A stretch of DNA of 64,000 nucleotides from an uncultured Candidatus Saccharibacteria bacterium. Lineage in GTDB: Bacteria > Patescibacteriota > Saccharimonadia > Saccharimonadales > CAYLGV01. Location: positions 26,873-90,872 of the forward strand of contig CAYMZG010000005.1 in NCBI GenBank assembly GCA_964394925.1. The letters are read 5' to 3'. Of this stretch, positions 6,669 to 42,396 are shown piece by piece. A program made the translations under genes and the position numbers. Numbering within the stretch: position 1 is the first letter of the stretch; every line of letters starts with the position of its first letter. Under the pieces are notes generated by a model that had not been told where the DNA came from, ran no database searches, and saw only the letters and a program-made list of their open reading frames with translations.

Positions 6669-8954
6669 TTACTTGGACTTGCGGCGAATGACGCGTTTCT
6701 TCTTATCAGGGGCTTTGTCGATGAGGGCTTTGGCGTCGGCCTCTGTTAATGTCTTGGGGTCAGTGGCTTTCGGTATGCGGGCGTTCTTCTTGCCGTTGGT
6801 AACATACGGGCCATACGGGCCATTCACAATACTGATGCCGCTGTCGAACTGTGCAATGTACTTGTTGGCTTCTTTTTCGAGCTTGGTGGCGTAGAGCTCG
6901 CGGGCCTCTTCTTCGGTAATCTTCATGGGGTCATGCGGTTTGATAGATACATAGAGCTTGCCGACCTGCACATAAGGCCCAAAGCGACCGATGTTGGCTT
7001 TCATATCTTGGCCATCTTCGGTTTTGCCAACCAAACGAGGCAGCTTGAACATTTCCAGGGCTTCTTCAAGTGTAATGGTGGTAAGCTGGGCCCCATCTGG
7101 CATGGGGGCAAAATCTGGCTTTTCTTCGCTTTCGGTTTCACCGCGCTGCAACATTGGTCCAAAACGACCATAACGGGCCATGATTGGCTTGCCGTTGCTG
7201 GGATCGTGCCCCAGGAGGCGGGCCTGGCTTGTTTCCTCGCGGCTCACGTTGGCCGAGGCTTCGATCAGCGGGTGGAAATCTTTATAAAAACCCGCCAGCA
7301 TGGTTTGCCACGCTTCCTTACCTTCGGCAATATCGTCAAATTCTTGCTCAACATTGGCGGTAAAGTCGTAGTCCAGGATATGCGCAAAGTGTTTCACAAG
7401 GAAATCAGTGGTTACTTCAGCCACAGGGGTGGGTAGCAGCTTGGAGCGGTCGGCGCCGTAGTTTTCTTCCTCGGTGGTGGTAGTTATGCTGTCCTTCTCG
7501 AGCGTTAGGCGTGTAACGTTACGGGTGGCGGCTTCGATGTCGGCTTTTTCAATGTAGCCGCGGCTCTGAATGGTGCTGATCGTTGGTGCATAGGTACTTG
7601 GTCGGCCAATGCCGAGCTCTTCGAGCTTGCGAACTAAGCTAGCTTCGCTGTAGCGCGCTGGTGGCCGGCTGAACGTCTCAGTGGCGGTCATGCGTTTGAG
7701 ATCGAGGGTTTGTCCTTGAGTGAGCGGCGGTAATATAGTGTCGTCCTTGCTGCCACCATACACCTTATAAAAACCATCGAAGCGCAGAATTTCACCCTTG
7801 GCAGCAAAGGTCTCTGTGCGGTTGCTCATGGCGATGGTAACATCGGTGCGGCTCACTTCAGCGGCGGCCATTTGGCTGGCCAGCGCGCGCCGCCAGATGA
7901 GGTTGTATAGCTTCTTTTGCTGTTCATCGGCGCCAGCGGCAGTGGTTTCGAAATTGGTGGGGCGAATGGCTTCGTGGGCTTCTTGGGCACTACTGTTTTT
8001 GGTCTTGTACTGGCGGACCTGGTGGTATTCTTTGCCATAGGTTTTGGCAATGTAAGTTTCGGCCGCTTTAATGGCCTGCCCAGATAACACCGTGCTGTCA
8101 GTACGCATATAGGTGATCTGACCACTTTCGTATAAGCGTTGGGCCAGTGTCATGGTTTGCTTAACACTAAAGCCTAAGCGTCGCGAGGCCTCTTGCTGGA
8201 GCGTACTGGTAGTGAATGGTGCCGAGGGATTGCGACTGCCTGGTTTGAGCGAGATATCTGACACGGTGTAGGCTGCGTCTTTGGCATCGTTCAGGAACTT
8301 CTCGGTATTTGCTTGATCTTCAAACCGCACACTGAGCTCGGCATCGAGCTCTGATCCGTCTGCAAGGAAGGTGCCAATTACTTTGTAGTCGCTGGTGCTT
8401 TCAAAGGCTTTGATTTCGCGTTCACGTTCAACAATGAGGCGAACGGCGACTGATTGCACTCGCCCGGCGGATAGACCGGTACGGACCTTTTTCCAGAGCA
8501 CGGGGCTGAGTTCATAGCCTACCAAACGGTCCAGGATGCGACGAGCTTGCTGGGCATCAACCAGCTTAAGGTCAACCGTGCGGGGCTTGGCAACAGCGTT
8601 CTCGATAGCCGGCTTAGTAATCTCATGAAACACAATGCGCTTGGTTTTCTCTGGGTCAAGATCAAGTGCCATGCAGAGGTGCCAGGCAATCGCCTCTCCT
8701 TCGCGGTCTTCATCGCTGGCGAGCCAAACGGTAGCATCCTTGGCGGCGGTCTTTAGCTCTTTTATGACCTTCTTTTTGTCGGCAGGAATTTCGTAGGTAG
8801 GCTGAAAACCCTTCTCAACATCAATGCTAATGCCTTTTTTAGGGAGGTCGCGGATGTGTCCAAAGCTGCTTTTAACGGTGTAGTCCTTGCCCAAGAACTT
8901 CTCTATGGTCTTGGCTTTGGCCGGACTTTCCACGATTACTAGGTTTTTTGCCAT
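6669..8954 (-). CDS. topA: DNA topoisomerase I
   Basis: Toprim N-terminus LVIVESPAKAKTI, active-site region GQITYMRTDS, 761 aa. Confidence 0.95.
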   Translation of the reverse strand: MAKNLVIVESPAKAKTIEKFLGKDYTVKSSFGHIRDLPKKGISIDVEKGFQPTYEIPADKKKVIKELKTAAKDATVWLASDEDREGEAIAWHLCMALDLDPEKTKRIVFHEITKPAIENAVAKPRTVDLKLVDAQQARRILDRLVGYELSPVLWKKVRTGLSAGRVQSVAVRLIVEREREIKAFESTSDYKVIGTFLADGSELDAELSVRFEDQANTEKFLNDAKDAAYTVSDISLKPGSRNPSAPFTTSTLQQEASRRLGFSVKQTMTLAQRLYESGQITYMRTDSTVLSGQAIKAAETYIAKTYGKEYHQVRQYKTKNSSAQEAHEAIRPTNFETTAAGADEQQKKLYNLIWRRALASQMAAAEVSRTDVTIAMSNRTETFAAKGEILRFDGFYKVYGGSKDDTILPPLTQGQTLDLKRMTATETFSRPPARYSEASLVRKLEELGIGRPSTYAPTISTIQSRGYIEKADIEAATRNVTRLTLEKDSITTTTEEENYGADRSKLLPTPVAEVTTDFLVKHFAHILDYDFTANVEQEFDDIAEGKEAWQTMLAGFYKDFHPLIEASANVSREETSQARLLGHDPSNGKPIMARYGRFGPMLQRGETESEEKPDFAPMPDGAQLTTITLEEALEMFKLPRLVGKTEDGQDMKANIGRFGPYVQVGKLYVSIKPHDPMKITEEEARELYATKLEKEANKYIAQFDSGISIVNGPYGPYVTNGKKNARIPKATDPKTLTEADAKALIDKAPDKKKRVIRRKSK

Positions 8955-8960
8955 TAGCTT

Positions 8961-8988
8961 TTAGTATACCTCATTCTTATATATGCAA
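8961..8988 (-). promoter_or_regulatory. possible topA promoter giving a leaderless or near-leaderless mRNA
   Basis: On the minus strand: TTGCAT (8983-8988), 16 nt, TACTAA (8961-8966), then 6 nt to the ATG at 8954. No SD is visible. Confidence 0.3.
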
Positions 8989-9040
8989 ATGGTAAGACTA
9001 ATTGAAAATAGGAAGAATTGCAACTACTACGTTCTGCCGC

Positions 9041-9110
9041 GGAGTTCGGAAAGCCGCCAATGGAATAATTGTTCTTGGCTTTCCTCCGGCAAGAATAGCC
9101 GAGCCTCCGC
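9041..9110. repeat. conserved 70-nt intergenic element, copy 1 (upstream of topA)
   Basis: Aligns without gaps to 10931-11000 with 54/70 identities. Hairpin GGAAAGCC (9048-9055) / GGCTTTCC (9077-9084). Confidence 0.7.
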
Positions 9111-9143
9111 TTGCGGAACGAAGTAGTTTGCACCCCATTTAGT

Positions 9144-9314
9144 TTAGGAGTTGTAGAGTTTGTAGCCGATGAAGATGCCAACGATTGAGCCGACCGCGCT
9201 AATGAGGATGCTCCAGAGACCCAGCATATTGCCATGGTCAAGCACACTGCCAATTGCACCACCAACGAGCCCGCCAACGATAATGCCAATCCAAACACAG
9301 GTCTTTAGCCCCAT
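9144..9314 (-). CDS. small glycine-rich two-TM membrane protein (GlsB/YeaQ/YmgE-like), 56 aa, below the ORF-track cutoff
   Basis: Hand translation gives MGLKTCVWIGIIVGGLVGGAIGSVLDHGNMLGLWSILISAVGSIVGIFIGYKLYNS*. The ATG lies 3 nt after the stop of the upstream gene. Confidence 0.5.
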   Translation of the reverse strand: MGLKTCVWIGIIVGGLVGGAIGSVLDHGNMLGLWSILISAVGSIVGIFIGYKLYNS

Positions 9315-9317
9315 GCG

Positions 9318-9917
9318 TTATGTTGTTCGGAGGTGGCGAAACTTCCGTCCTTTCAGCCCTTTGCCTTTTGGATCGATCACGCTGGCGATGTTTTCGAGAA
9401 GTTCAACAGCGTAGTTGCCGACGACCTCTTCGGTATGTGCCATAAGCTTCGTCTCGGTTTTAATAAATCGTTCGTCCATCCGCCCTTCGAATGATGCAAA
9501 GCGTTCAGCTACTTGCCCTTGAAATGATATAAATCGTTCATCCATTTGTTTTTGAGCAGATGTAAATCGTTCGTCCATTCGTTGTTCGAGAGATTTGAAT
9601 CGTTCATCTGCTTGTTGCTCAAATGATGCAAAGCGTTGATCCATCCCTTGCTCAAATGATGCAAAGCGATTCTCTGTACGCTCTTCAAGTCTGTCGACCT
9701 TGTTGTCGAGCTTATCAATACGGTCATTAACACGATTTTCAAGTGAATGCAGCTCATCACGGATGAGCTCGGTGTGTGCCTTCAAGAGTAACTGCATATC
9801 ACCCTGGACGTCTTTACGTACATCTATACGTAAATCTCTACGTAAATCTTTATATAGCTTCCCTAAAGCCGTTGCCAGGTCATCTTTTGTTAGATAGTCA
9901 GGCTGTTTGTTACCCAT
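9318..9917 (-). CDS. coiled-coil protein with seven tandem 11-residue repeats
   Basis: Repeats: NRFASFEQGMD / QRFASFEQQAD / ERFKSLEQRMD / ERFTSAQKQMD / ERFISFQGQVA / ERFASFEGRMD / ERFIKTETKLM. Confidence 0.7.
   Translation of the reverse strand: MGNKQPDYLTKDDLATALGKLYKDLRRDLRIDVRKDVQGDMQLLLKAHTELIRDELHSLENRVNDRIDKLDNKVDRLEERTENRFASFEQGMDQRFASFEQQADERFKSLEQRMDERFTSAQKQMDERFISFQGQVAERFASFEGRMDERFIKTETKLMAHTEEVVGNYAVELLENIASVIDPKGKGLKGRKFRHLRTT
9465..9695 (-). repeat. 7 x 33-bp in-frame tandem repeat inside the CDS
   Basis: A 33-bp periodicity (AAATCGTTCGTCCAT...) is visible in the DNA. It encodes the 11-mer repeats. Confidence 0.8.
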
Positions 9918-9961: not shown

Positions 9962-10822
9962 TTACCGAAGCCCCCACTGGCCACCGCCCAGACCGCGAAT
10001 CTTACCGGTGAGCTCAAGCATAGTAAGTGTTTGATTAAAGGTTGCGGCGCTAAGATCGCTCCGAACTTGCAATTCGTTGATATCCGAAACACCTTGGGCA
10101 ACAAGTTGTATGAGTGAGGATTCCTCTGGGCTATCGCCCACGGGTAAATGTTGTTGTTTGCTGGTAGAGATACCGAGTGCTGCAAGTATGTCAGAAGCGC
10201 TGGTAACGGCTATGGCACCGTCTTTTAACAGATTATTGGTGCCAACACTGGTTGTGCTGTTGATATTGCCCGGGACGGCCATAACCGTTTTGCCCATATC
10301 AAGTGCAAATCGCACCGTGTGCATTGTGCCCGATTTGAGAGCTGCCTCTGTAATGAGTAACGCGTCACCCAAGGCAGCGACCATACGGTTCCGTTCTATG
10401 AACTGATGTTTCATGGCCGGTTCCCCAAGCCCGTATTCACTGATAATACAACCCCCGTTCAACAAAATTTGCTGGGCTAAAGCCGTATGATTACGGGGGT
10501 GGATTCGATCGAGGCCAGCCGCCAAAACGGCAATAGTACAACCATTAGCCTCAAGGGCTGCACGGTGTGCCAGCGCGTCAACACCAAGTGCTAAACCGCT
10601 TACAATGGCCACGCCCGCTTCTGCTACTTCCCGAACTAAACGACTGGTAACATCGCGGCCATACGCTGAAACGGCTCGCGTTCCCACGACACTCAATCGC
10701 GGTCCATCACTCAGAGTTGCCAGATTACCTTGAGCATATATGCCTGAAGGAGGATCAAACAGCTGTTCAAACACTTCAGGATAATCTGGATCTGAGCGTT
10801 GGATATAGTGTAGATTTTCCAT
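9962..10822 (-). CDS. dprA: DNA processing protein DprA
   Basis: GLALGVDALAHRAAL and VLAAGLDRIHP motifs. The start was moved to MENLHYIQ (ATG 10822), which follows AGTGGTGGGACT. The longer track ORF reads through the non-coding repeat. Confidence 0.9.
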   Translation of the reverse strand: MENLHYIQRSDPDYPEVFEQLFDPPSGIYAQGNLATLSDGPRLSVVGTRAVSAYGRDVTSRLVREVAEAGVAIVSGLALGVDALAHRAALEANGCTIAVLAAGLDRIHPRNHTALAQQILLNGGCIISEYGLGEPAMKHQFIERNRMVAALGDALLITEAALKSGTMHTVRFALDMGKTVMAVPGNINSTTSVGTNNLLKDGAIAVTSASDILAALGISTSKQQHLPVGDSPEESSLIQLVAQGVSDINELQVRSDLSAATFNQTLTMLELTGKIRGLGGGQWGLR

Positions 10823-10930
10823 AGTCCCACCACTATACGAAAAAGTTATTAACAGATTATTAAGCTTTGCAAATTCTACAATACATTCTTGCAATAAAAT
10901 GGCCATCGGCTGGTTATGTACCAGCTCGTC

Positions 10931-11000
10931 AGGGTTCAGGAAGCCGCCAAAAGAACAATTATTCTTGGCTTCCTTCCGGCAATATAAGCCGAGCCCCTGA
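10931..11000. repeat. conserved 70-nt intergenic element, copy 2 (upstream of dprA)
   Basis: Partner of 9041-9110. Hairpin AGGAAGCC (10938-10945) / GGCTTCCT (10967-10974). Confidence 0.7.
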
Positions 11001-11060
11001 CAAACCAGTACATAACCAACCAAGATATATTTGTTTATTGCACGAAGTTATATTTTAGTA

Positions 11061-11089
11061 TTGACATTATGTACTGCTTTTGCTAAAAT
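11061..11089 (+). promoter_or_regulatory. near-consensus sigma-70-type promoter with extended -10
   Basis: TTGACA (11061-11066), 17-nt spacer ending in TGc, TAAAAT (11084-11089). Confidence 0.65.
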
Positions 11090-11095
11090 TGCAAT

Positions 11096-11479
11096 TCGTA
11101 AGTCATACATAGACTTATGTACCTTATACCCCTATTCTAACTATTGTTAGATTGTTTTAGAGCGTGCCATCCTAAGTTGTTACCCTCCACTTATCTTGGT
11201 TGCCTGTTCAAAAATTCGAATAAGCAGCGCTCTAAGACATACTAACCCCTTTAACTAACCCCCGTTGTGGTTTCGTACCCCTCGGCAGTTCAAAGCGAGC
11301 CCAGAAAGGTATCCGTGGCAACGCGGTGGCACGGCACTTTAAGGAGTTTTGGTGCGCGATGCTTCGCTGGGTGGGTTGAAGGGTATTTTTACCGGCACAA
11401 CGGGTGTTCCTTGGAATGCAGTGATTGTGCCATGAAATCGGTCTACAGCGGTGCCCACCCCCTCTGTAGGCCGTTTTTA
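11096..11479 (+). ncRNA. candidate structured non-coding RNA or long leader, class not recognised
   Basis: Lies between the strong promoter and an intrinsic terminator with no credible ORF. Long-range helices at 11157-11164/11228-11235 and 11261-11269/11396-11404. Confidence 0.4.
11439..11479 (+). terminator. intrinsic terminator
   Basis: CGGTCTACAG ... CTGTAGGCCG stem (one G-U pair) followed by TTTTT. Confidence 0.7.
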
Positions 11480-11508
11480 TTTAAAACCATGAGATAATTT
11501 ACTTACGT

Positions 11509-26457: not shown

Positions 26458-26700
26458 CTAAAGGGCTCGGCTGCTGAGTAGCGTCCAGGTGCGGCTGCCC
26501 GGCTCAAAGCTCAGACGGTACAGTTTTTGGCCGTCTGTCATGTTAAAAATTTGTATAAGATCTTGGCCTTTTTGCACCAAGCAGCGTAGGCCGTTTTGCA
26601 GGAAACTAAGTTCCCTGCCTTCGACTTCGATATTGCGTGGGAAACAGTGCTTTTGATCAAAGTAAAACGCAGTGACATTAACTACGGTGTTGTGAGACAT
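26458..26700 (-). CDS. hypothetical 80-aa protein, first gene of the umuDC-like cassette
   Basis: The ATG follows an AGGAG RBS with 7-nt spacing. Confidence 0.5.
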   Translation of the reverse strand: MSHNTVVNVTAFYFDQKHCFPRNIEVEGRELSFLQNGLRCLVQKGQDLIQIFNMTDGQKLYRLSFEPGSRTWTLLSSRAL

Positions 26701-26957
26701 ATACGACTCCTATAAGAGATTTAGGGATAACAAAAGAGTCAACTGAGACAAATTGTTCAGCCGGAACGGGTTAGAAGAGAGCTTTCTGGTAGGCTCGTGG
26801 GACCGTTCACCCGATGAGCAATTTACAGATAGCTAAATGTCGTATATGTGAGGCGCGCAGTGACCTGAGTATGCTTGCCTAGTCGTGTATAAAGCCTGGT
26901 GGCGATGGACGATTTGCCGGGACGGCAAAACTGACTCATGCTCCCATAGCTGCTTGT

Positions 26958-26987
26958 AGTATAGCCACTCAAAGTGCTCGTGGTCAA
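26958..26987 (-). promoter_or_regulatory. putative promoter with ~250-nt leader for the umuDC-like cassette
   Basis: On the minus strand: TTGACC (26982-26987), 18 nt, TATACT (26958-26963). Confidence 0.4.
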
Positions 26988-27023
26988 CGTTCGAATGATG
27001 TGCTTTTTGTCACAAACCTGTGC

Positions 27024-27458
27024 TTAAACCGGGCCGGGAGTTGCGGTTGACTGGTTAGGGTTAAGGCGTAATTGATCGAGGAACGTTACCAGCTCCTTGG
27101 GGGTAATCTCGGCCTTTACAATGTAGCCGTCGGCCTGGGCTTCAATGGCAGCACGACCCTCCTCGGCCAATTCAAGATTGGTCGTAACAATGATTTTGGC
27201 GCGCAGGTTTGGCGTCTCGCGTACGTCGCGCAGGCGATGCAGGATTTCGGTGCCAGTTAAGTTCGGCAGCATGATATCGAGCAAGATTACATCGTAAGCA
27301 TCGGTCTGGGCGGCCTGTAGCGCTTCTTGGCCATCAACAATTACCGTAACGTCGTAGCCAGCCTTGCTAAGGGCCCGAATATACAGCTCGCTAATAAATG
27401 GCTCATCTTCAATAATGAGCACGCGGGTGTTATTGCTGGGGGTGGGATTGTTGTCCAT
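27024..27458 (-). CDS. single-domain response regulator (REC only)
   Basis: VLIIEDEP...VILLDIMLP...IVKA. The start was moved to MDNNPTPS, 31 nt after the kinase stop. Confidence 0.85.
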   Translation of the reverse strand: MDNNPTPSNNTRVLIIEDEPFISELYIRALSKAGYDVTVIVDGQEALQAAQTDAYDVILLDIMLPNLTGTEILHRLRDVRETPNLRAKIIVTTNLELAEEGRAAIEAQADGYIVKAEITPKELVTFLDQLRLNPNQSTATPGPV

Positions 27459-33083: not shown

Positions 33084-34559
33084 GTGATGGATTTCCTCGA
33101 TCCCAAGAAGAAACGTGCACACCGCATCCGTCTCTATATAGGTTACGGTCTGATGGCGGTCGCCCTAGCCATTGCCACCGTTATTCTACTGTTCGCTGCC
33201 TACGGCTACGACATTGACCGCAGCACAGGGGGCATTATTCAGAATGGCATGGTGATTCTCGATGCTCATCCTGAATCGGCAACTATTTACGTGAATAGTG
33301 AACAGCGTGGCACTACCGCAGATCGATTGGCTCTGCCCGCGGGTCAATATAAGATTGAGTTAAAGCGAGACGGGTATCGACCATGGCAACATAATGTCAA
33401 TCTTGAGGGAAGCAGCATTGAACAGCTGGTGTATCCGTTCTTGTTCCCGCAGAAACTTGTGAGCAAGAACCTGCAGCAATTCGCTACCCCGCCACAGGTA
33501 GCGTCACAGAGCCCCGATCGCCACTGGCTAATTGTATCTGAGCCAACCGTTGGGAGCTTCCAGGTATTTGATCTAAATAACGATAAGAACCCTTCAACGA
33601 GCATTAGTTTGCCGGCTGACACCATTACATCTACTCCTGGCGCTCAAAGCTACGAAGCTATAGAGTGGTCAAGCGATAACACACATCTGTTACTTCGACA
33701 TGCTTATCAAGGTGGAGCTGAGTTTGTAGTGTTGGATCGTGAGAATCCTGCCAACAGTGTGAATATCACCAAGCTTTTTACTGGCACACCATTCACAACC
33801 GCGACTCTGCGAGACAAGAAGTACGATCAGTACTATTTACATACAAACGATGGTTCTTTGTATTCGGCTGAAGCTAAGAGTAAAACACCTACTCTGGTGG
33901 TCCAAAATGTCGCTCAGTACAAGTCTTACCAAGCTGATACCCTACTTTATGCTGTTTCAACAACGCCCTCGGCCACAGTAGCCGATATCCATTATCGTCA
34001 GGGATCACAAGATTACGTACTACGAACTGTGCCCAAGGCTGATAAGTACTTGCTGGATATGGCTCGTTTTAATGGACATTTCTATATTGCAGCCGGTAGC
34101 ACGGCCGACGGGCATACTTACGTGTATAAAGATCCAATCGACGATTACACACGCCGCCCAGCTCGTACACCCCAACCAAACCGTGTTTTGATTGAGCAAG
34201 GCGCCCAGTATGTATCATTCTCGGCTATCGCCCGTTTCATTGCGGTCCAGGCCGGTAGTAGCTTTGCGGTATACGATGCCGAAACGGGTCGACAGTTCAA
34301 ATATGACACCAAACTTAATCTGACGCCTGGTCAAAAAGCAACCTGGATGGACGGCCACCGCCTGCTCCTCAACAGTAATGATGTGCAATATGTTTTTGAT
34401 TTCGACGGTACGAATATGCAAAAACTAAATCCTACCCTTCATACGTATCCCCCATTCTTTGATCGTGACTACACGGCCCTCTTCACCGTCTCGCCGCAGA
34501 ATAACGCCGCCGACAAGCCAGTTTTGCTCCGCTCAGAGCTCAAAGTTAAAACGAACTAA
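33084..34559 (+). CDS. PEGA-domain membrane protein
   Basis: N-terminal TM segment, then ATIYVNSEQRGTT...LPAGQYKIELKRDGYRPW (PEGA-like), followed by a long beta-rich region. Confidence 0.65.
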   Translation: MMDFLDPKKKRAHRIRLYIGYGLMAVALAIATVILLFAAYGYDIDRSTGGIIQNGMVILDAHPESATIYVNSEQRGTTADRLALPAGQYKIELKRDGYRPWQHNVNLEGSSIEQLVYPFLFPQKLVSKNLQQFATPPQVASQSPDRHWLIVSEPTVGSFQVFDLNNDKNPSTSISLPADTITSTPGAQSYEAIEWSSDNTHLLLRHAYQGGAEFVVLDRENPANSVNITKLFTGTPFTTATLRDKKYDQYYLHTNDGSLYSAEAKSKTPTLVVQNVAQYKSYQADTLLYAVSTTPSATVADIHYRQGSQDYVLRTVPKADKYLLDMARFNGHFYIAAGSTADGHTYVYKDPIDDYTRRPARTPQPNRVLIEQGAQYVSFSAIARFIAVQAGSSFAVYDAETGRQFKYDTKLNLTPGQKATWMDGHRLLLNSNDVQYVFDFDGTNMQKLNPTLHTYPPFFDRDYTALFTVSPQNNAADKPVLLRSELKVKTN

Positions 34560-34703
34560 TAGTCCCACTCACCTACCTACTATGGCCCCTGCAGCTGTGT
34601 GGAGGGGTTTGGCTATAGGCCACAAGGAAACCAAGAGTGTGCCTTTGGCGGTTCCCGTACCCTCCAACATAGCTACAGGTGCCATGGCGGTGTTAGTGCG
34701 CTA

Positions 34704-35915
34704 TTAGCTAGATAGCCGGCTGGTGAGGCGATGCCAAAGTGTTTCGCTGTTACTCGGCAGTGTTTTGGGGCTGCCCTCATTGGCCTTGGCTGAACTAGCC
34801 GTGTTGCCTGCTGGATCGGGCGTTATCTGCTCACCAGTAACAACCAGGCGGTTTAAGCTGGTCCCCGGTGGGTCACACGTTATGAGGCTGAACGTGGCCG
34901 GCTTGCCGTAATTGTAGTTAAGTACTGACACGTCCTGCGGTTTAACAATCTTCTTATCGAATACTTTGTAGACGTAGCGTTTGCCGTCTTTTTGCAGTAT
35001 GAAAGTATCACCGTTCTCCAGTCGTTTTAAGAGTACGAAGGCGAACTTATACTTTCCCTTGTTAAAGATATTATTTGCGGAGTGACCGAAAATGGCACCG
35101 TTGCCTAATTCACCCGGATTTGGAGTTGTTGCGTAATGCACCACTCCCCTGTCGAGTGCGTTATGAATAGCATTCTCATCAATCGACGGCTCGTCGTACA
35201 CAACGGGTATCTCAACGTTAATTTTAGGAATAATTATGAGCGGTTCGCTACCAGCGGTAGTTGCGCTGCCATCAATGATTATGGAATTGTTACTGACGGT
35301 TTTACTTGGGGATATAAAAGGAGCCAAGAAGCGTTCATTGAAAAAACTAAACAGTAGGATCACGACAACGATTAGGCCCGAGGCCAGCCCGAACGCCAGT
35401 GATTTGAGGTGGCCTCCGCGTTTGCCATGCCCTGAACGAGCTGCACCACGAGCAATTTGTTTCTTCACCGCACTCACCGTGCGTGTGCCGTGCGGGTGGT
35501 GTTTCCGTCGGGCAGCAGTATTATGCGAGACATGATCAACTGGTGTTGGTGTGGTGAGTTGGGCGGTTTTATCGGTCGCGGTAGTAGCGTGGTGTGGTCG
35601 GCCGTCACCGAGGCGTACACCACGTTTGTTGTATTCATCATAAAATTCTTGCCAGACCTGATGCTTCTCGTGGTCTGGCAGGGCGAGATAGTAGTTGTGC
35701 CAAGCGGTCTGGATTTCCGCTAACGAGCGGCCAGATTGGCTCAACTCAAGCATGTAGCGTTGATGCTTCGAACGGTGCGGTTCATGCTTGGCCTCAATGA
35801 TCTCCTCTTTGGCGTTCGGCTCCTCTGCATAGAGGTCATTTAGTTTGGCACGAATCAAATCCGCCGCCGGATTGGCGGCGTTCTCGGGCGCGTTGTCGTG
35901 ATTCGTATTGCTCAT
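34704..35915 (-). CDS. sortase-family transpeptidase with long N-terminal extension
   Basis: GHSANN and the TLxTC-type motif FSLITCDPPG. One TM segment. Confidence 0.75.
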   Translation of the reverse strand: MSNTNHDNAPENAANPAADLIRAKLNDLYAEEPNAKEEIIEAKHEPHRSKHQRYMLELSQSGRSLAEIQTAWHNYYLALPDHEKHQVWQEFYDEYNKRGVRLGDGRPHHATTATDKTAQLTTPTPVDHVSHNTAARRKHHPHGTRTVSAVKKQIARGAARSGHGKRGGHLKSLAFGLASGLIVVVILLFSFFNERFLAPFISPSKTVSNNSIIIDGSATTAGSEPLIIIPKINVEIPVVYDEPSIDENAIHNALDRGVVHYATTPNPGELGNGAIFGHSANNIFNKGKYKFAFVLLKRLENGDTFILQKDGKRYVYKVFDKKIVKPQDVSVLNYNYGKPATFSLITCDPPGTSLNRLVVTGEQITPDPAGNTASSAKANEGSPKTLPSNSETLWHRLTSRLSS

Positions 35916-40091: not shown

Positions 40092-40541
40092 CTAGTTCAA
40101 GTTGCTCTTGGTGAAGGTGCCGCCACCTTCGAGGGTTGCTGTAAGCGTGTAGGTTGTACATGTGGTGTCATCTGACTCACATGAACCACCTGAGCTGTTA
40201 GTAACAGCGTATGAGTACGATGTTGCGCTTGGTGAGCTTGCTACAGTGTAGCCAGAACCCTTCGGATCCTTCAAAGCTTCTTGGTCAAGACCCTTCATGT
40301 TCGTGCTGCGCCATGAGCTGTCGTTAATATCAGTGAGTGATGGGTAGCTACCCTTCTGTGCGTAATACGCCTCAACCTGGCCATGAAGTGCCTTTACATC
40401 GGTTGTGCGCTCGGTGTTACGAGCCTTTTGTTGAATACCGGTAAAGGTTGTGATTACCAGTGCCGCGAGGATACCGATAACAACGATAACGATCAAAAGT
40501 TCCACAATCGTGAAACCCTGTTGCTTAACTTTGTTGGTCAT
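40092..40541 (-). CDS. type IV pilin (prepilin-type N-terminal cleavage/methylation domain), paralog 1
   Basis: MTNKVKQQ-GFTIVELLIVIVVIGILAAL. RBS AAAGGTGGGAAC. Confidence 0.85.
   Translation of the reverse strand: MTNKVKQQGFTIVELLIVIVVIGILAALVITTFTGIQQKARNTERTTDVKALHGQVEAYYAQKGSYPSLTDINDSSWRSTNMKGLDQEALKDPKGSGYTVASSPSATSYSYAVTNSSGGSCESDDTTCTTYTLTATLEGGGTFTKSNLN
40093..40316 (-). repeat. 224-nt segment identical to 40716-40939 (3' halves of the two pilin genes)
   Basis: Base-by-base comparison found no mismatch. Upstream of this tract the two genes diverge. Confidence 0.85.
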
Positions 40542-40714: not shown

Positions 40715-41170
40715 TTAGTTCAAGTTGCTCTTGGTGAAGGTGCCGCCACCTTCGAGGGTTGCTGTAAGCGTGTAGGTTGTACATGTGGTGTCATCTGACT
40801 CACATGAACCACCTGAGCTGTTAGTAACAGCGTATGAGTACGATGTTGCGCTTGGTGAGCTTGCTACAGTGTAGCCAGAACCCTTCGGATCCTTCAAAGC
40901 TTCTTGGTCAAGACCCTTCATGTTCGTGCTGCGCCATGAACTATTATTAAGGTCGGCTAGAGATGGGTAGCTACCCTTCTGTGCGTAATACGCCTCAACC
41001 TGGCCATGCACGGCCTTTACATCGGTTGTGCGCTCGGTGTTACGAGCTTTTTGTTGAATGCCGGTAAAGGTTGTGATAACCAATGCGGCCAAAATACCAA
41101 TAACGACGATAACGATCAAGAGTTCAACGATCGTAAAACCGCGCTGGTCTTTATGTAGTGTACGTGACAT
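40715..41170 (-). CDS. type IV pilin, paralog 2
   Basis: MSRTLHKDQR-GFTIVELLIVIVVIGILAAL. The ATG at 41170 follows AAGAAGGGTGGG. Confidence 0.85.
   Translation of the reverse strand: MSRTLHKDQRGFTIVELLIVIVVIGILAALVITTFTGIQQKARNTERTTDVKAVHGQVEAYYAQKGSYPSLADLNNSSWRSTNMKGLDQEALKDPKGSGYTVASSPSATSYSYAVTNSSGGSCESDDTTCTTYTLTATLEGGGTFTKSNLN
40716..40939 (-). repeat. 224-nt segment identical to 40093-40316
   Basis: See the partner entry at 40093-40316. Confidence 0.85.
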
Positions 41171-41373
41171 GTATATGCCCACCCTTCTTAACTTGTTGTA
41201 TTAGTAATATACGGGCGCAGTATAACCTTGATTAAGCCGAAACACAAGCATTTTTCCACAGTTACAACAGCTGTGAAATATCCCAAATTTGACTAATGCT
41301 TGAATTGATGATACGATGTTGAAGGTTCCAAAAAACGGAACATCCCTTGTTAGCAACTAAATAAGGGAGTGAT

Positions 41374-41541: not shown

Positions 41542-42126
41542 ATGATCAGGACAGTTGTATTAACGGGCGGGCCATCGGGGGGTAAGTCAACGCTGCATAA
41601 TCAAATCGGCGAACAGCTGACAGGGGTTTACCTAGTGCCCGAAACGGCTACGATGCTGCTGAGCGGTGGATTTCCTGCCCCTTCGGAGCGGCATCCTTGG
41701 GATGAGACATGGCAGGCCGATTTCCAGGTAGCTATTGCCGCCGGTCAGCTCGCGGTAGAGAACATATCGAAACGGCGTGCTGAGCGAGAAGGAAAATCAC
41801 TCATCGTGTTAGATAGAGGGCGACCCGACGGCGCAGCCTACCTGCCAGGTGGTATGCGGGAGTTCGAAGCGATTACTGGCCAGGATGAGCGCACGATGCT
41901 GCATTCGTACGACATGGTGCTGCACATGCCCACCGCGGCAGCGCACCAGGCATACGATCAGAGTAGCAATCCCCATCGCTTCGAAGAAGCGGCGGCAGCG
42001 CTCGAGCTTGATGAAAGAATAATGAAAGTCTGGGAAAATCATCCGAACCGTATTGTGCTCGATGAGATAGATGAAACAGAGCGCATGGCGCATGGGCTGC
42101 GAATCGTGAAGGGCTTGCTCGACTAG
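41542..42126 (+). CDS. AAA_28-type P-loop NTPase
   Basis: Walker A LTGGPSGGKST, then VPETATMLL. Confidence 0.6.
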   Translation: MIRTVVLTGGPSGGKSTLHNQIGEQLTGVYLVPETATMLLSGGFPAPSERHPWDETWQADFQVAIAAGQLAVENISKRRAEREGKSLIVLDRGRPDGAAYLPGGMREFEAITGQDERTMLHSYDMVLHMPTAAAHQAYDQSSNPHRFEEAAAALELDERIMKVWENHPNRIVLDEIDETERMAHGLRIVKGLLD

Positions 42127-42132
42127 GCTGCA

Positions 42133-42267
42133 AATTGTGGCGGAGGGAGAGGGATAGCGGCCTTCGGCCTTCTCCGCTGCGGCGTACTCGGTGCAAGCAC
42201 CTGCGTGCGTCCTCGCTACGCCGAACCCTGCCACTTCGTGCCATGGGTTCTTCACCCCCCCATACAG
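42133..42267 (-). repeat. tRNA-linked GC-rich structured module, member C, ending in a copy of the tRNA-Ser 3' end
   Basis: The core at 42187-42204, read on the minus strand, is GCAGGTGCTTGCACCGAG. The 18 nt at 42138-42155 are identical to 42307-42324. Confidence 0.6.
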
Positions 42268-42308
42268 CAATGTTTATATCCCAGCCTTCGGCTGAGCTAC
42301 AAACATTG
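42268..42308 (-). terminator. hairpin beginning inside the tRNA CCA
   Basis: Minus strand: CAATGTTT...CAGCC-GAA-GGCTG...AAACATTG. Confidence 0.45.
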
Positions 42309-42396
42309 GCGGAGGGAGAGGGATTCGAACCCTCGATACCCTTTCGAGTAAACCCGCGTTCCAGGCGAGCGCCATAAACCACTAGGCGACCCCTCC
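42307..42396 (-). tRNA. tRNA-Ser (anticodon GGA), long variable arm, CCA encoded
   Basis: Acceptor GGAGGGG/TCCCTCC, anticodon arm CTCGC-CTGGAAC-GCGGG, T arm GAGGG-TTCGAAT-CCCTC. Confidence 0.9.

Follow-up and report, generated by a model that had tools for sequence, protein, structure and literature searches.

The stretch of DNA analysed here (the window, 64 kb in all) comes from a Saccharibacteria (TM7/CPR) bacterium and carries topA and dprA on its minus strand, with two small genes between them and a hairpin-forming repeat upstream of each. An initial annotation of the same DNA had noticed part of this repeat as an ungapped match between 9041-9110 and 10931-11000. The count given for it, 54/70 identities, is correct; random pairs of 70-mers from the window share a mean of 17.6 (sd 3.7, maximum 31). 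A repeat finder, which is independent of the ungapped alignment, returns a 62-nt pair, 9044-9105 and 10934-10995, that is 82% identical. The 70-nt match is real, and it is the conserved centre of a hairpin-forming repeat of ~115 bases. When the window was searched with a covariance model built from the copies, exactly three matches were obtained, referred to here as w2 (95.5 bits, 10925-11004), w1 (82.1 bits, 9035-9114) and w3 (54.4 bits, 34597-34669, plus strand); the next best match scored 12.5 bits. The copies and the genes around them are as follows.

6669..8954, minus strand: topA (Pfam Toprim, Topoisom_bac and Toprim_C_rpt), downstream of w1
9019..9132, minus strand: w1, subtype 1, whole hairpin, between the small membrane-protein gene and topA (minimum free energy fold and model match)
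9045..9104, minus strand: Y-shaped core of w1, with P2 at 9086-9102, the P3 arms at 9077-9084 / 9048-9055 and the P3b tip between the arms
9144-9314, minus strand: small membrane-protein gene (open reading frame, weak Pfam match), between w1 and w2
9318-9917, minus strand: gene for an 11-residue-repeat protein (open reading frame, weak Pfam match, 33-nt periodic repeats), between w1 and w2
9962..10822, minus strand: dprA (Pfam DNA_processg_A at residues 3-207 of the 286-aa form, ATG at 10822), downstream of w2
10906..11023, minus strand: w2, subtype 1, whole hairpin, upstream of dprA (fold and model match)
10935..10994, minus strand: core of w2, with P2 at 10976-10992 and the P3 arms at 10967-10974 / 10938-10945; from the columns of the copy alignment, P3b at 10951-10966 and the invariant bulge UUGGC at 10946-10950
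11066..11094, minus strand: promoter-like TTGCAA-17-CATAAT (a consensus match only), which could drive a dprA transcript containing w2
33084-34559, plus strand: PEGA-domain gene, flanking w3
34574..34692, plus strand: w3, subtype 2, diverged in sequence, in the spacer where the PEGA-domain and sortase genes converge (model match, fold and orthology of the flanks)
34704-35915, minus strand: sortase gene, flanking w3

Pfam thus bears out the assignment of both topA and dprA. The open reading frames 8954-9298 and 9962-11023, which had been reported to run through the repeat, exist, and they were rightly taken for translation artefacts: the public record (P0001) gives a DprA of 353 aa that starts at a TTG at 11023 and runs through w2, whereas the DprA proteins of relatives have 285-289 aa. 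Over w1 lies a spurious frame of 114 aa (8954-9298, minus strand). Within the gene at 9318-9917, six tandem 33-nt units that are 62-77% identical occupy 9465-9668 (minus strand) and encode an 11-residue periodic, apolipoprotein-like helical repeat.

The promoter-like site at 11066..11094 has the same sequence in three relatives (L001, L054 and L063; relatives are cited by such labels throughout) that do not carry w2. On the opposite strand, a near-consensus promoter, TTGACA-17-TAAAAT (11061-11089), heads a non-coding stretch of ~390 nt (within 11061-11487) that ends in a hairpin and T-run at about 11440-11481. This stretch is kept upstream of dprA in L001, L003, L004, L054 and L063 and carries inserted domains that vary. 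Of its 74 predicted pairs, 14 have changed on both sides; Rfam gives no match, and a 76-aa frame inside it (11267-11497) has no match in Pfam. The stretch probably represents a structured RNA gene of Saccharibacteria that has not been described before. Another non-coding block, of ~300 nt, is almost identical between the window (26700-27030, minus strand) and L064 (9050-9375). It lies upstream of two small open reading frames and a umuDC-like pair, behind a promoter-like TTGACC-17-TATACT, and could be the leader of an SOS-type operon or a small RNA belonging to one. The window also contains two direct repeats. One, of 300 nt and 96% identical (40093-40392 and 40716-41015), overlaps two adjacent genes, 40092-40541 and 40715-41182, whose products have an N-terminal methylation (pilin-type) motif; from their sequences they look like recently duplicated or converted pilin paralogues. 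The other, of 37 nt and 81% identical (42119-42155 and 42288-42324), overlaps the 3' part of a tRNA-Ser gene (42307-42396, minus strand) and a site 169 nt away, and may be a duplicated tRNA fragment such as integration at a tRNA gene leaves behind.

Structure of the repeat

All seven full copies now known adopt the same Y-shaped fold, and their outer stems are unrelated in sequence. The conserved core of ~60 nt is a three-way junction that bears two hairpins. P2 is a short hairpin (5' arm UCGGC, 3' arm GCCGG, loop 5-7 nt). A single unpaired A connects it to P3, the helix GGAAAGCC/GGCUUUCC, which has UUGGC as its invariant 3' bulge and P3b, a small hairpin, at its distal end. The outer stem P1, of 17-30 bp, closes the core with a sequence that is unique to each locus; between w1 and w2 it is wholly different and yet paired in both. 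Only its innermost 3-4 bp recur among the seven full copies, as RGGG/CCCY or GGAG/CTCC. Arms longer than 30 nt were considered, as a lenient alignment gave 45-68 nt, and then rejected, since stricter scoring with shuffled controls backed only those of w2 and L026.

The helix singled out in the initial annotation, GGAAAGCC/GGCTTTCC in w1 (9077-9084 / 9048-9055) and AGGAAGCC/GGCTTCCT in w2 (10967-10974 / 10938-10945), does differ by two double-sided, pair-preserving changes, which fall at alignment pairs 31-67 and 33-65, and the second hairpin that it described, CGGC-N7-GCCG, is recovered both by folding and in the alignment of the copies. The minimum free energy fold of 9015-9135 pairs 9132 with 9019 in w1 (z = -5.1 on the minus strand and -6.1 on the plus strand). 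The fold of w2 reaches -71.4 kcal/mol (z = -9.8) on the minus strand and -49.6 kcal/mol on the plus strand. The whole hairpins of w1 and w2 have z-scores of -5 to -10 against shuffles; w3 folds at -59.5 and -57.1 kcal/mol, with z about -4. The possibility that the frame 'KNN.S.GGF', which the copies share, is coding was also rejected: the core has no start codon, the apparent synonymous changes are the compensatory changes of the stems, and the P2 loop varies in length (5-7 nt), so that the frame upstream of it shifts.

Copies, subtypes and sites

A scan of 185,579 species-representative genomes with the exact subtype-1 pattern, which is blind to subtype 2 and to divergent copies, returned 44 loci, of which four are real. 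All four are in one Saccharibacteria metagenome-assembled genome, CAYLGV01, on four contigs (L009, L026, L035 and L048); its TopA is 91% identical to that of the window. In another relative, the DprA of which is 68% identical, the contigs L056 and L057 begin inside a shortened copy that lies upstream of dprA and antisense to it. The L056 copy and w3 share the junction UU, the loop UAUAG and the linker CAA, and the family therefore has two subtypes. In total, seven full copies and one truncated copy are known, that is eight copies at five loci in three genomes, and related copies were found only in close Saccharibacteria relatives.

Other searches were negative. The three matches of a metagenome pattern scan are all chance matches in unrelated DNA, and neither a scan of viral contigs nor blastn against phage and plasmid records gave anything real. 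Across the whole window only three tRNAs pass the Rfam gathering scores, with no family for the element among riboswitches, ribozymes (such as hammerhead, twister, pistol and hatchet), sRNAs or leaders, and ARAGORN likewise reports only three tRNAs in the window, all away from it; at E<=10 around the copies, the Rfam matches are all of the hairpin type and far below threshold (mir-584, 24.9 bits against a threshold of 80, and STnc420, 20.7 against 70). Nhmmer and the covariance model detected no copy upstream of dprA or topA in L001, L003-L006, L054, L055 or L063. The copy number appears low (three in 64 kb). It should be noted that L056 and L057 both break at position 1 inside the hairpin, although they are independent assemblies; such palindromes fragment short-read assemblies, and copies may therefore be under-counted.

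The copies adjoin genes of various kinds. Those upstream of topA, w1 and L048, occupy an orthologous site. Upstream of dprA are w2, in the sense orientation, and the antisense copy of L056, and the L026 copy is upstream of a gene for a UvrD/PD-(D/E)XK helicase-nuclease. The L009 copy lies between divergent GtrA and sugar-transferase genes; w3 and the L035 copy lie between convergent PEGA-domain and sortase genes. At this last site the window has subtype 2 and L035 has subtype 1, in opposite orientations, and the site is empty in the closest relative, L065/L066 (sortase 88% identical, gap 53 nt), and in L064 (gap 10 nt) and L067 (gap 16 nt). At dprA, the copy of the window is of subtype 1 and runs sense to the gene, that of L056 is of subtype 2 and runs antisense, L054 has a 5' arm and GGGGC only, and L001 and L063 have no element. 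Both the window and L048 have the element at the topA site; L006, which has the same gene order, lacks it. More distant relatives are without both the topA and the dprA copies.

The element is thus missing from the orthologous sites of L001, L006, L063, L064, L065/L066 and L067, as a dispersed repeat would be. The distribution is not that of a gene-specific cis-regulatory leader, since two copies are located between convergent genes, one is antisense to dprA, and none is found upstream of topA or dprA in L001, L003, L004, L006 and L063. The initial annotation had offered two interpretations of its 70-nt match, a small dispersed repeat or a regulatory RNA or operator common to genes of DNA uptake and processing, and only the first is supported. 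It agrees with the distribution of the eight known copies, which occupy five loci of three related genomes, run in either orientation and lie in spacers of divergent, tandem and convergent type. Against the second are the copies that flank the sugar transferase/GtrA and sortase/PEGA pairs, the copy of another lineage that runs antisense to dprA, and L006, which has the same order of dprA, repeat protein, membrane protein and topA without the element. Nor is there support for the proposal that topA and dprA each kept a copy when an insertion split them. As the repeat adjoins unrelated genes too, it behaves as a small insertional element and not as a dedicated switch for DNA uptake; its association with genes of DNA uptake is in all likelihood incidental.

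The window, CAYLGV01, L001 and L006 lie at about equal distances from one another, with TopA proteins 89-93% identical and third codon positions at 41-52%, near saturation. The cores group by genome and subtype and not by locus. Those of L009, L026 and L035 are mutually 97-98% identical, whereas the full cores of w3 and L035, at the same site in two genomes, are only 70% identical; w3 and L056, from different loci of different genomes, agree at 25 of the 29 nt present in L056 (counted by hand). This grouping and the states of the sites together imply that cores move or are exchanged between loci, and on these comparisons independent insertions are more parsimonious than one ancient copy followed by many losses and type switches.

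The dprA-topA region differs between relatives in other ways. In L001, comparison of 1392-1533 with window 9025-9444 shows a deletion of the gene for the small membrane protein and of most of that for the repeat protein; 41 nt of the latter remain at L001 1427-1467, matching window 9404-9444. To judge from such alignments, the region is apparently a hot spot at which alleles are replaced and sequence is deleted.

Possible roles as structured RNA, operator or recombination site

Three other accounts of the element have to be set beside insertion. The most substantial of them, although we consider it rather unlikely, is that the element is a cis-acting structured RNA, co-transcribed with its neighbours, that has a processing, stability, insulating or factor-binding role, its junction and bulge being bound by a factor acting in trans. 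The long stem would then need only to pair. The copies at the orthologous topA site, w1 and L048, are suggestive in this respect: their cores are 92% identical, against 47.5% at the third codon positions of topA, and their arms have drifted to 60-64% identity and still pair over ~24 bp. Loops vary among the copies, with the junctions and the UUGGC bulge invariant, and there are compensatory changes in P2 and P3; in P2 a C-G pair is replaced by U-A among copies, and a U-A pair changes to C-G between w3 and L056. The initial annotation had asked that the compensatory pattern survive the addition of further copies if the structure is selected, and it does, with 11 pairs changed on both sides (eight in P1, one in P2 and two in P3) against 6.3±1.6 in shuffles, two of 500 of which reach 11, although this signal is ambiguous in a DNA palindrome. 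Over the seven copies 87% of cells are paired (80% in shuffles), and the covariation score of 0.261 exceeds both the shuffles (0.135) and slid registers (0.06-0.12, with 1-5 double-sided pairs); the test uses only seven related sequences, and a DNA palindrome can yield the same signal. Compensatory pairs are thus in excess over both kinds of control, as in a structured RNA. Templated correction between arms preserves complementarity in quasi-palindromes, however, and can keep a DNA palindrome paired without selection on an RNA.

The evidence on strand is similarly divided. In each of the five full-length copies that do not lie between convergent genes, it is the same strand that is sense to the gene downstream, the start of which is 30-110 nt away, and in w2 and L048 wobble pairs are found almost only on the gene-sense strand (7:2 and 4:0), which folds better by ~20 kcal/mol; this hints at a strand-specific role. 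Summed over all copies, however, wobble pairs number 20 versus 16, which is no preference, and 5/7 copies fold equally well on either strand. A co-transcribed RNA is also difficult to reconcile with copies between convergent genes, with the copy antisense to dprA and with close relatives that lack the element upstream of the same genes. No promoter is conserved upstream of the copies, the U-tract is missing and stems of 25-30 bp are atypical of riboswitches. An intrinsic terminator can be set aside: no T-run follows any copy on either strand, and a terminator scan reports none at the copies.

A proposal that we regard as barely credible is that the tip of P3, a palindrome of 12-16 bp (AAGAACAATTGTTCTT, GAAC-N4-GTTC), is a double-stranded DNA operator for a dimeric repressor such as LexA of the Gram-positive type; that topA, dprA and the UvrD-like helicase are its targets is just as hard to credit. 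The likeness to the Gram-positive LexA (Cheo) box is confined to the four CAYLGV01 copies, all of which have a perfect GAAC-N4-GTTC at this position, and genes acting on DNA are among the neighbours: at three of the five loci, copies precede DNA-metabolism genes. In the window, by contrast, w1 and w2 each have one degenerate half-site, and subtype 2 (w3) is entirely without the palindrome. P3b has undergone no compensatory change and is only 78% paired. Sites with up to one mismatch number 22 in the window, with 21.8 expected by chance, and the two perfect ones lie inside a coding region; there is none upstream of the umuDC-like operon of the window or of L064. The site in P3b is at least 75 nt upstream of the likely topA promoter and does not overlap a promoter, and other copies flank unrelated genes. 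A 2020 paper from the group that described the Patescibacteria SOS network lists that work among cases in which LexA came to recognize a direct repeat in place of the usual palindrome (PMC7739468). The idea of a LexA box was dropped, as it draws support from neither this literature nor the count of sites in the window nor the umuDC-like promoter.

It is also very unlikely, if a little less so than an operator, that the element is a recombination site made of folded DNA, comparable to integron attC or hairpin telomere-like sites, that bounds exchangeable blocks of genes. Evidence for this includes the arrangement of w1 and w2, which are direct repeats bracketing a 2-kb block of dprA and two small genes. 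Homology between the window and L001, the TopA of which is 93% identical, breaks off at 9024 and 11021, only a few bases from the outer edges of the hairpins; inside the block L001 differs, its DprA being only 66% identical and its small genes deleted. At two orthologous sites, moreover, the core occurs in flipped orientation, as would a segment between inverted repeats. Integron attC sites, like the element, are imperfect palindromes that are read as folds, with conserved structure, variable sequence and at times a branched centre, and direct copies of them flank gene cassettes. They differ in conserving the outer R'/R'' and varying the centre, and in requiring IntI; here it is the ends that vary and the centre that is conserved. 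The R'' (RYYYAAC) and R' (GTTRRRY) boxes are absent, since the outer ends are unconserved, and neither an integrase nor any tyrosine or serine recombinase was found among the window frames scanned. Most copies are solitary, and L006 has the same block without a topA copy. The coincidence of the ends of homology with the hairpin edges may reflect breakage or recombination associated with the palindrome, or chance.

Probable insertion and possible origin of the arms

The reading that we favour, and think probable, is that the family is a new insertion element of palindromic form, its conserved Y-shaped core closed by stems specific to each copy, and that it is restricted to a narrow clade of Saccharibacteria. 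It probably behaves as a mobile element, being found in all types of spacer, present or absent, and in either orientation at the same site. The position of w1 and w2 beside topA and dprA is then best read as incidental, or as a shared hot spot for insertion. Several observations stand against insertion. No terminal inverted repeat is common to the copies, and none of them shows a clear target-site duplication, the flanks being inverted and not direct repeats, with CTC(C) at both borders of w1 and L048; the TA...TA at the borders of L009 and L035 is self-complementary and hence uninformative in this respect. The 92% identity of the w1 and L048 cores resembles purifying selection, unless cores have been exchanged between lineages. 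Pfam detects no transposase, recombinase, reverse transcriptase or HUH enzyme among 58 open reading frames scanned in the window; it finds no LexA or RecA in them either.

Comparison with known repeats is instructive. REP/BIME and REPIN sequences of Proteobacteria are likewise short, multi-copy extragenic palindromes that lie between genes, including convergent ends, and give stable hairpins in transcripts. In REP, however, the repeat itself is conserved and tied to a RAYT, whereas here the arms are unique to each locus and the branched centre alone is conserved; the conserved palindrome of 20-40 nt, often with GTAG/CTAC, is not seen, and neither a RAYT nor a Y1/HUH transposase was found in the window. 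MITEs and related elements (Correia/NEMIS, ERIC, the Rickettsia palindromic elements, BOX/RUP) resemble the family in being small, non-coding and dispersed, in varying among relatives, in forming long hairpins and in being at times co-transcribed with neighbouring genes. MITEs, however, have terminal inverted repeats in common, are flanked by target-site duplications and descend from a parent that encodes a transposase. Here the outer stems of the seven full copies have no shared terminal inverted repeat, no target-site duplication is clearly seen, and no transposase was found among the window frames scanned. The architecture of a MITE is in effect inverted, with the centre conserved and the ends variable. 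By analogy only, one may think of the T- or Y-shaped hairpins of parvoviruses (flip/flop ITRs), where a long stem closes two inner hairpins and both orientations of the centre occur; those are the ends of replicons, however, and the elements described here are chromosomal and internal.

How a conserved core could acquire a different stem at each locus is suggested by two sites at which only part of the element is present. L054 matches the 5' arm of w2 at the dprA site, and the match ends after GGGGC; at the topA site, L006, which is empty, aligns with the 3' arm of w1/L048 (GTTGC..CTTCAT...GTTGCA). At two loci, therefore, one arm is ordinary flanking DNA, and the core and the other arm are extra. 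Fold-back inverted duplication (snap-back, or quasi-palindrome template switching) is an established route by which palindromes are made or corrected. We suggest that the core may land beside a short G-run, after which fold-back or template-switch synthesis would copy the native DNA next to it in inverted form to give the second arm. The GGG/CCC closure of the core would nucleate the fold-back, so that the element would build its own locus-specific stem, and later exchange between the arms would keep them complementary. The copying of an arm from neighbouring DNA would explain the closure by GGAG/CUCC, and not AGGG/CCCU, in w1 and L048. On alignment alone, the patterns in L054 and L006 would fit one-sided deletion, to which long palindromes are prone, equally as well as fold-back insertion.

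In its full form this scheme would describe a transposase-independent, 'self-stemming' mobile element, the ~60-nt core of which is copied by way of G-run microhomology while the nascent strand copies host DNA in inverted form. It is an unlikely scheme, and we put it forward tentatively. If it is true, each insertion would make a new stem of 17-30 bp, which would explain why a conserved centre is combined with unique arms; to our knowledge, such a mode of spread has not been described for bacterial repeats. On an equal footing, the family may be a new class of three-way-junction RNA, specific to Saccharibacteria and under strong sequence constraint.

Saccharibacteria and other CPR bacteria have very small and compact genomes, and we know of almost nothing reported on their repeats and non-coding RNAs. 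The element has practical consequences, as it corrupts public annotation, making DprA 67 residues too long, and breaks assemblies, two contigs ending inside a copy. Directly upstream of topA and dprA it introduces hairpins of great stability, and it coincides with recombination and deletion breakpoints in a naturally variable region. If it is transcribed with the neighbouring genes, folding predicts that it would form a very stable RNA hairpin (-47 to -71 kcal/mol). Its architecture, a conserved branched centre to which each copy adds a stem of its own, is unusual and the reverse of that of the classic MITE and REP, and the element could reveal a new route by which palindromes originate and move, or a new structured RNA.
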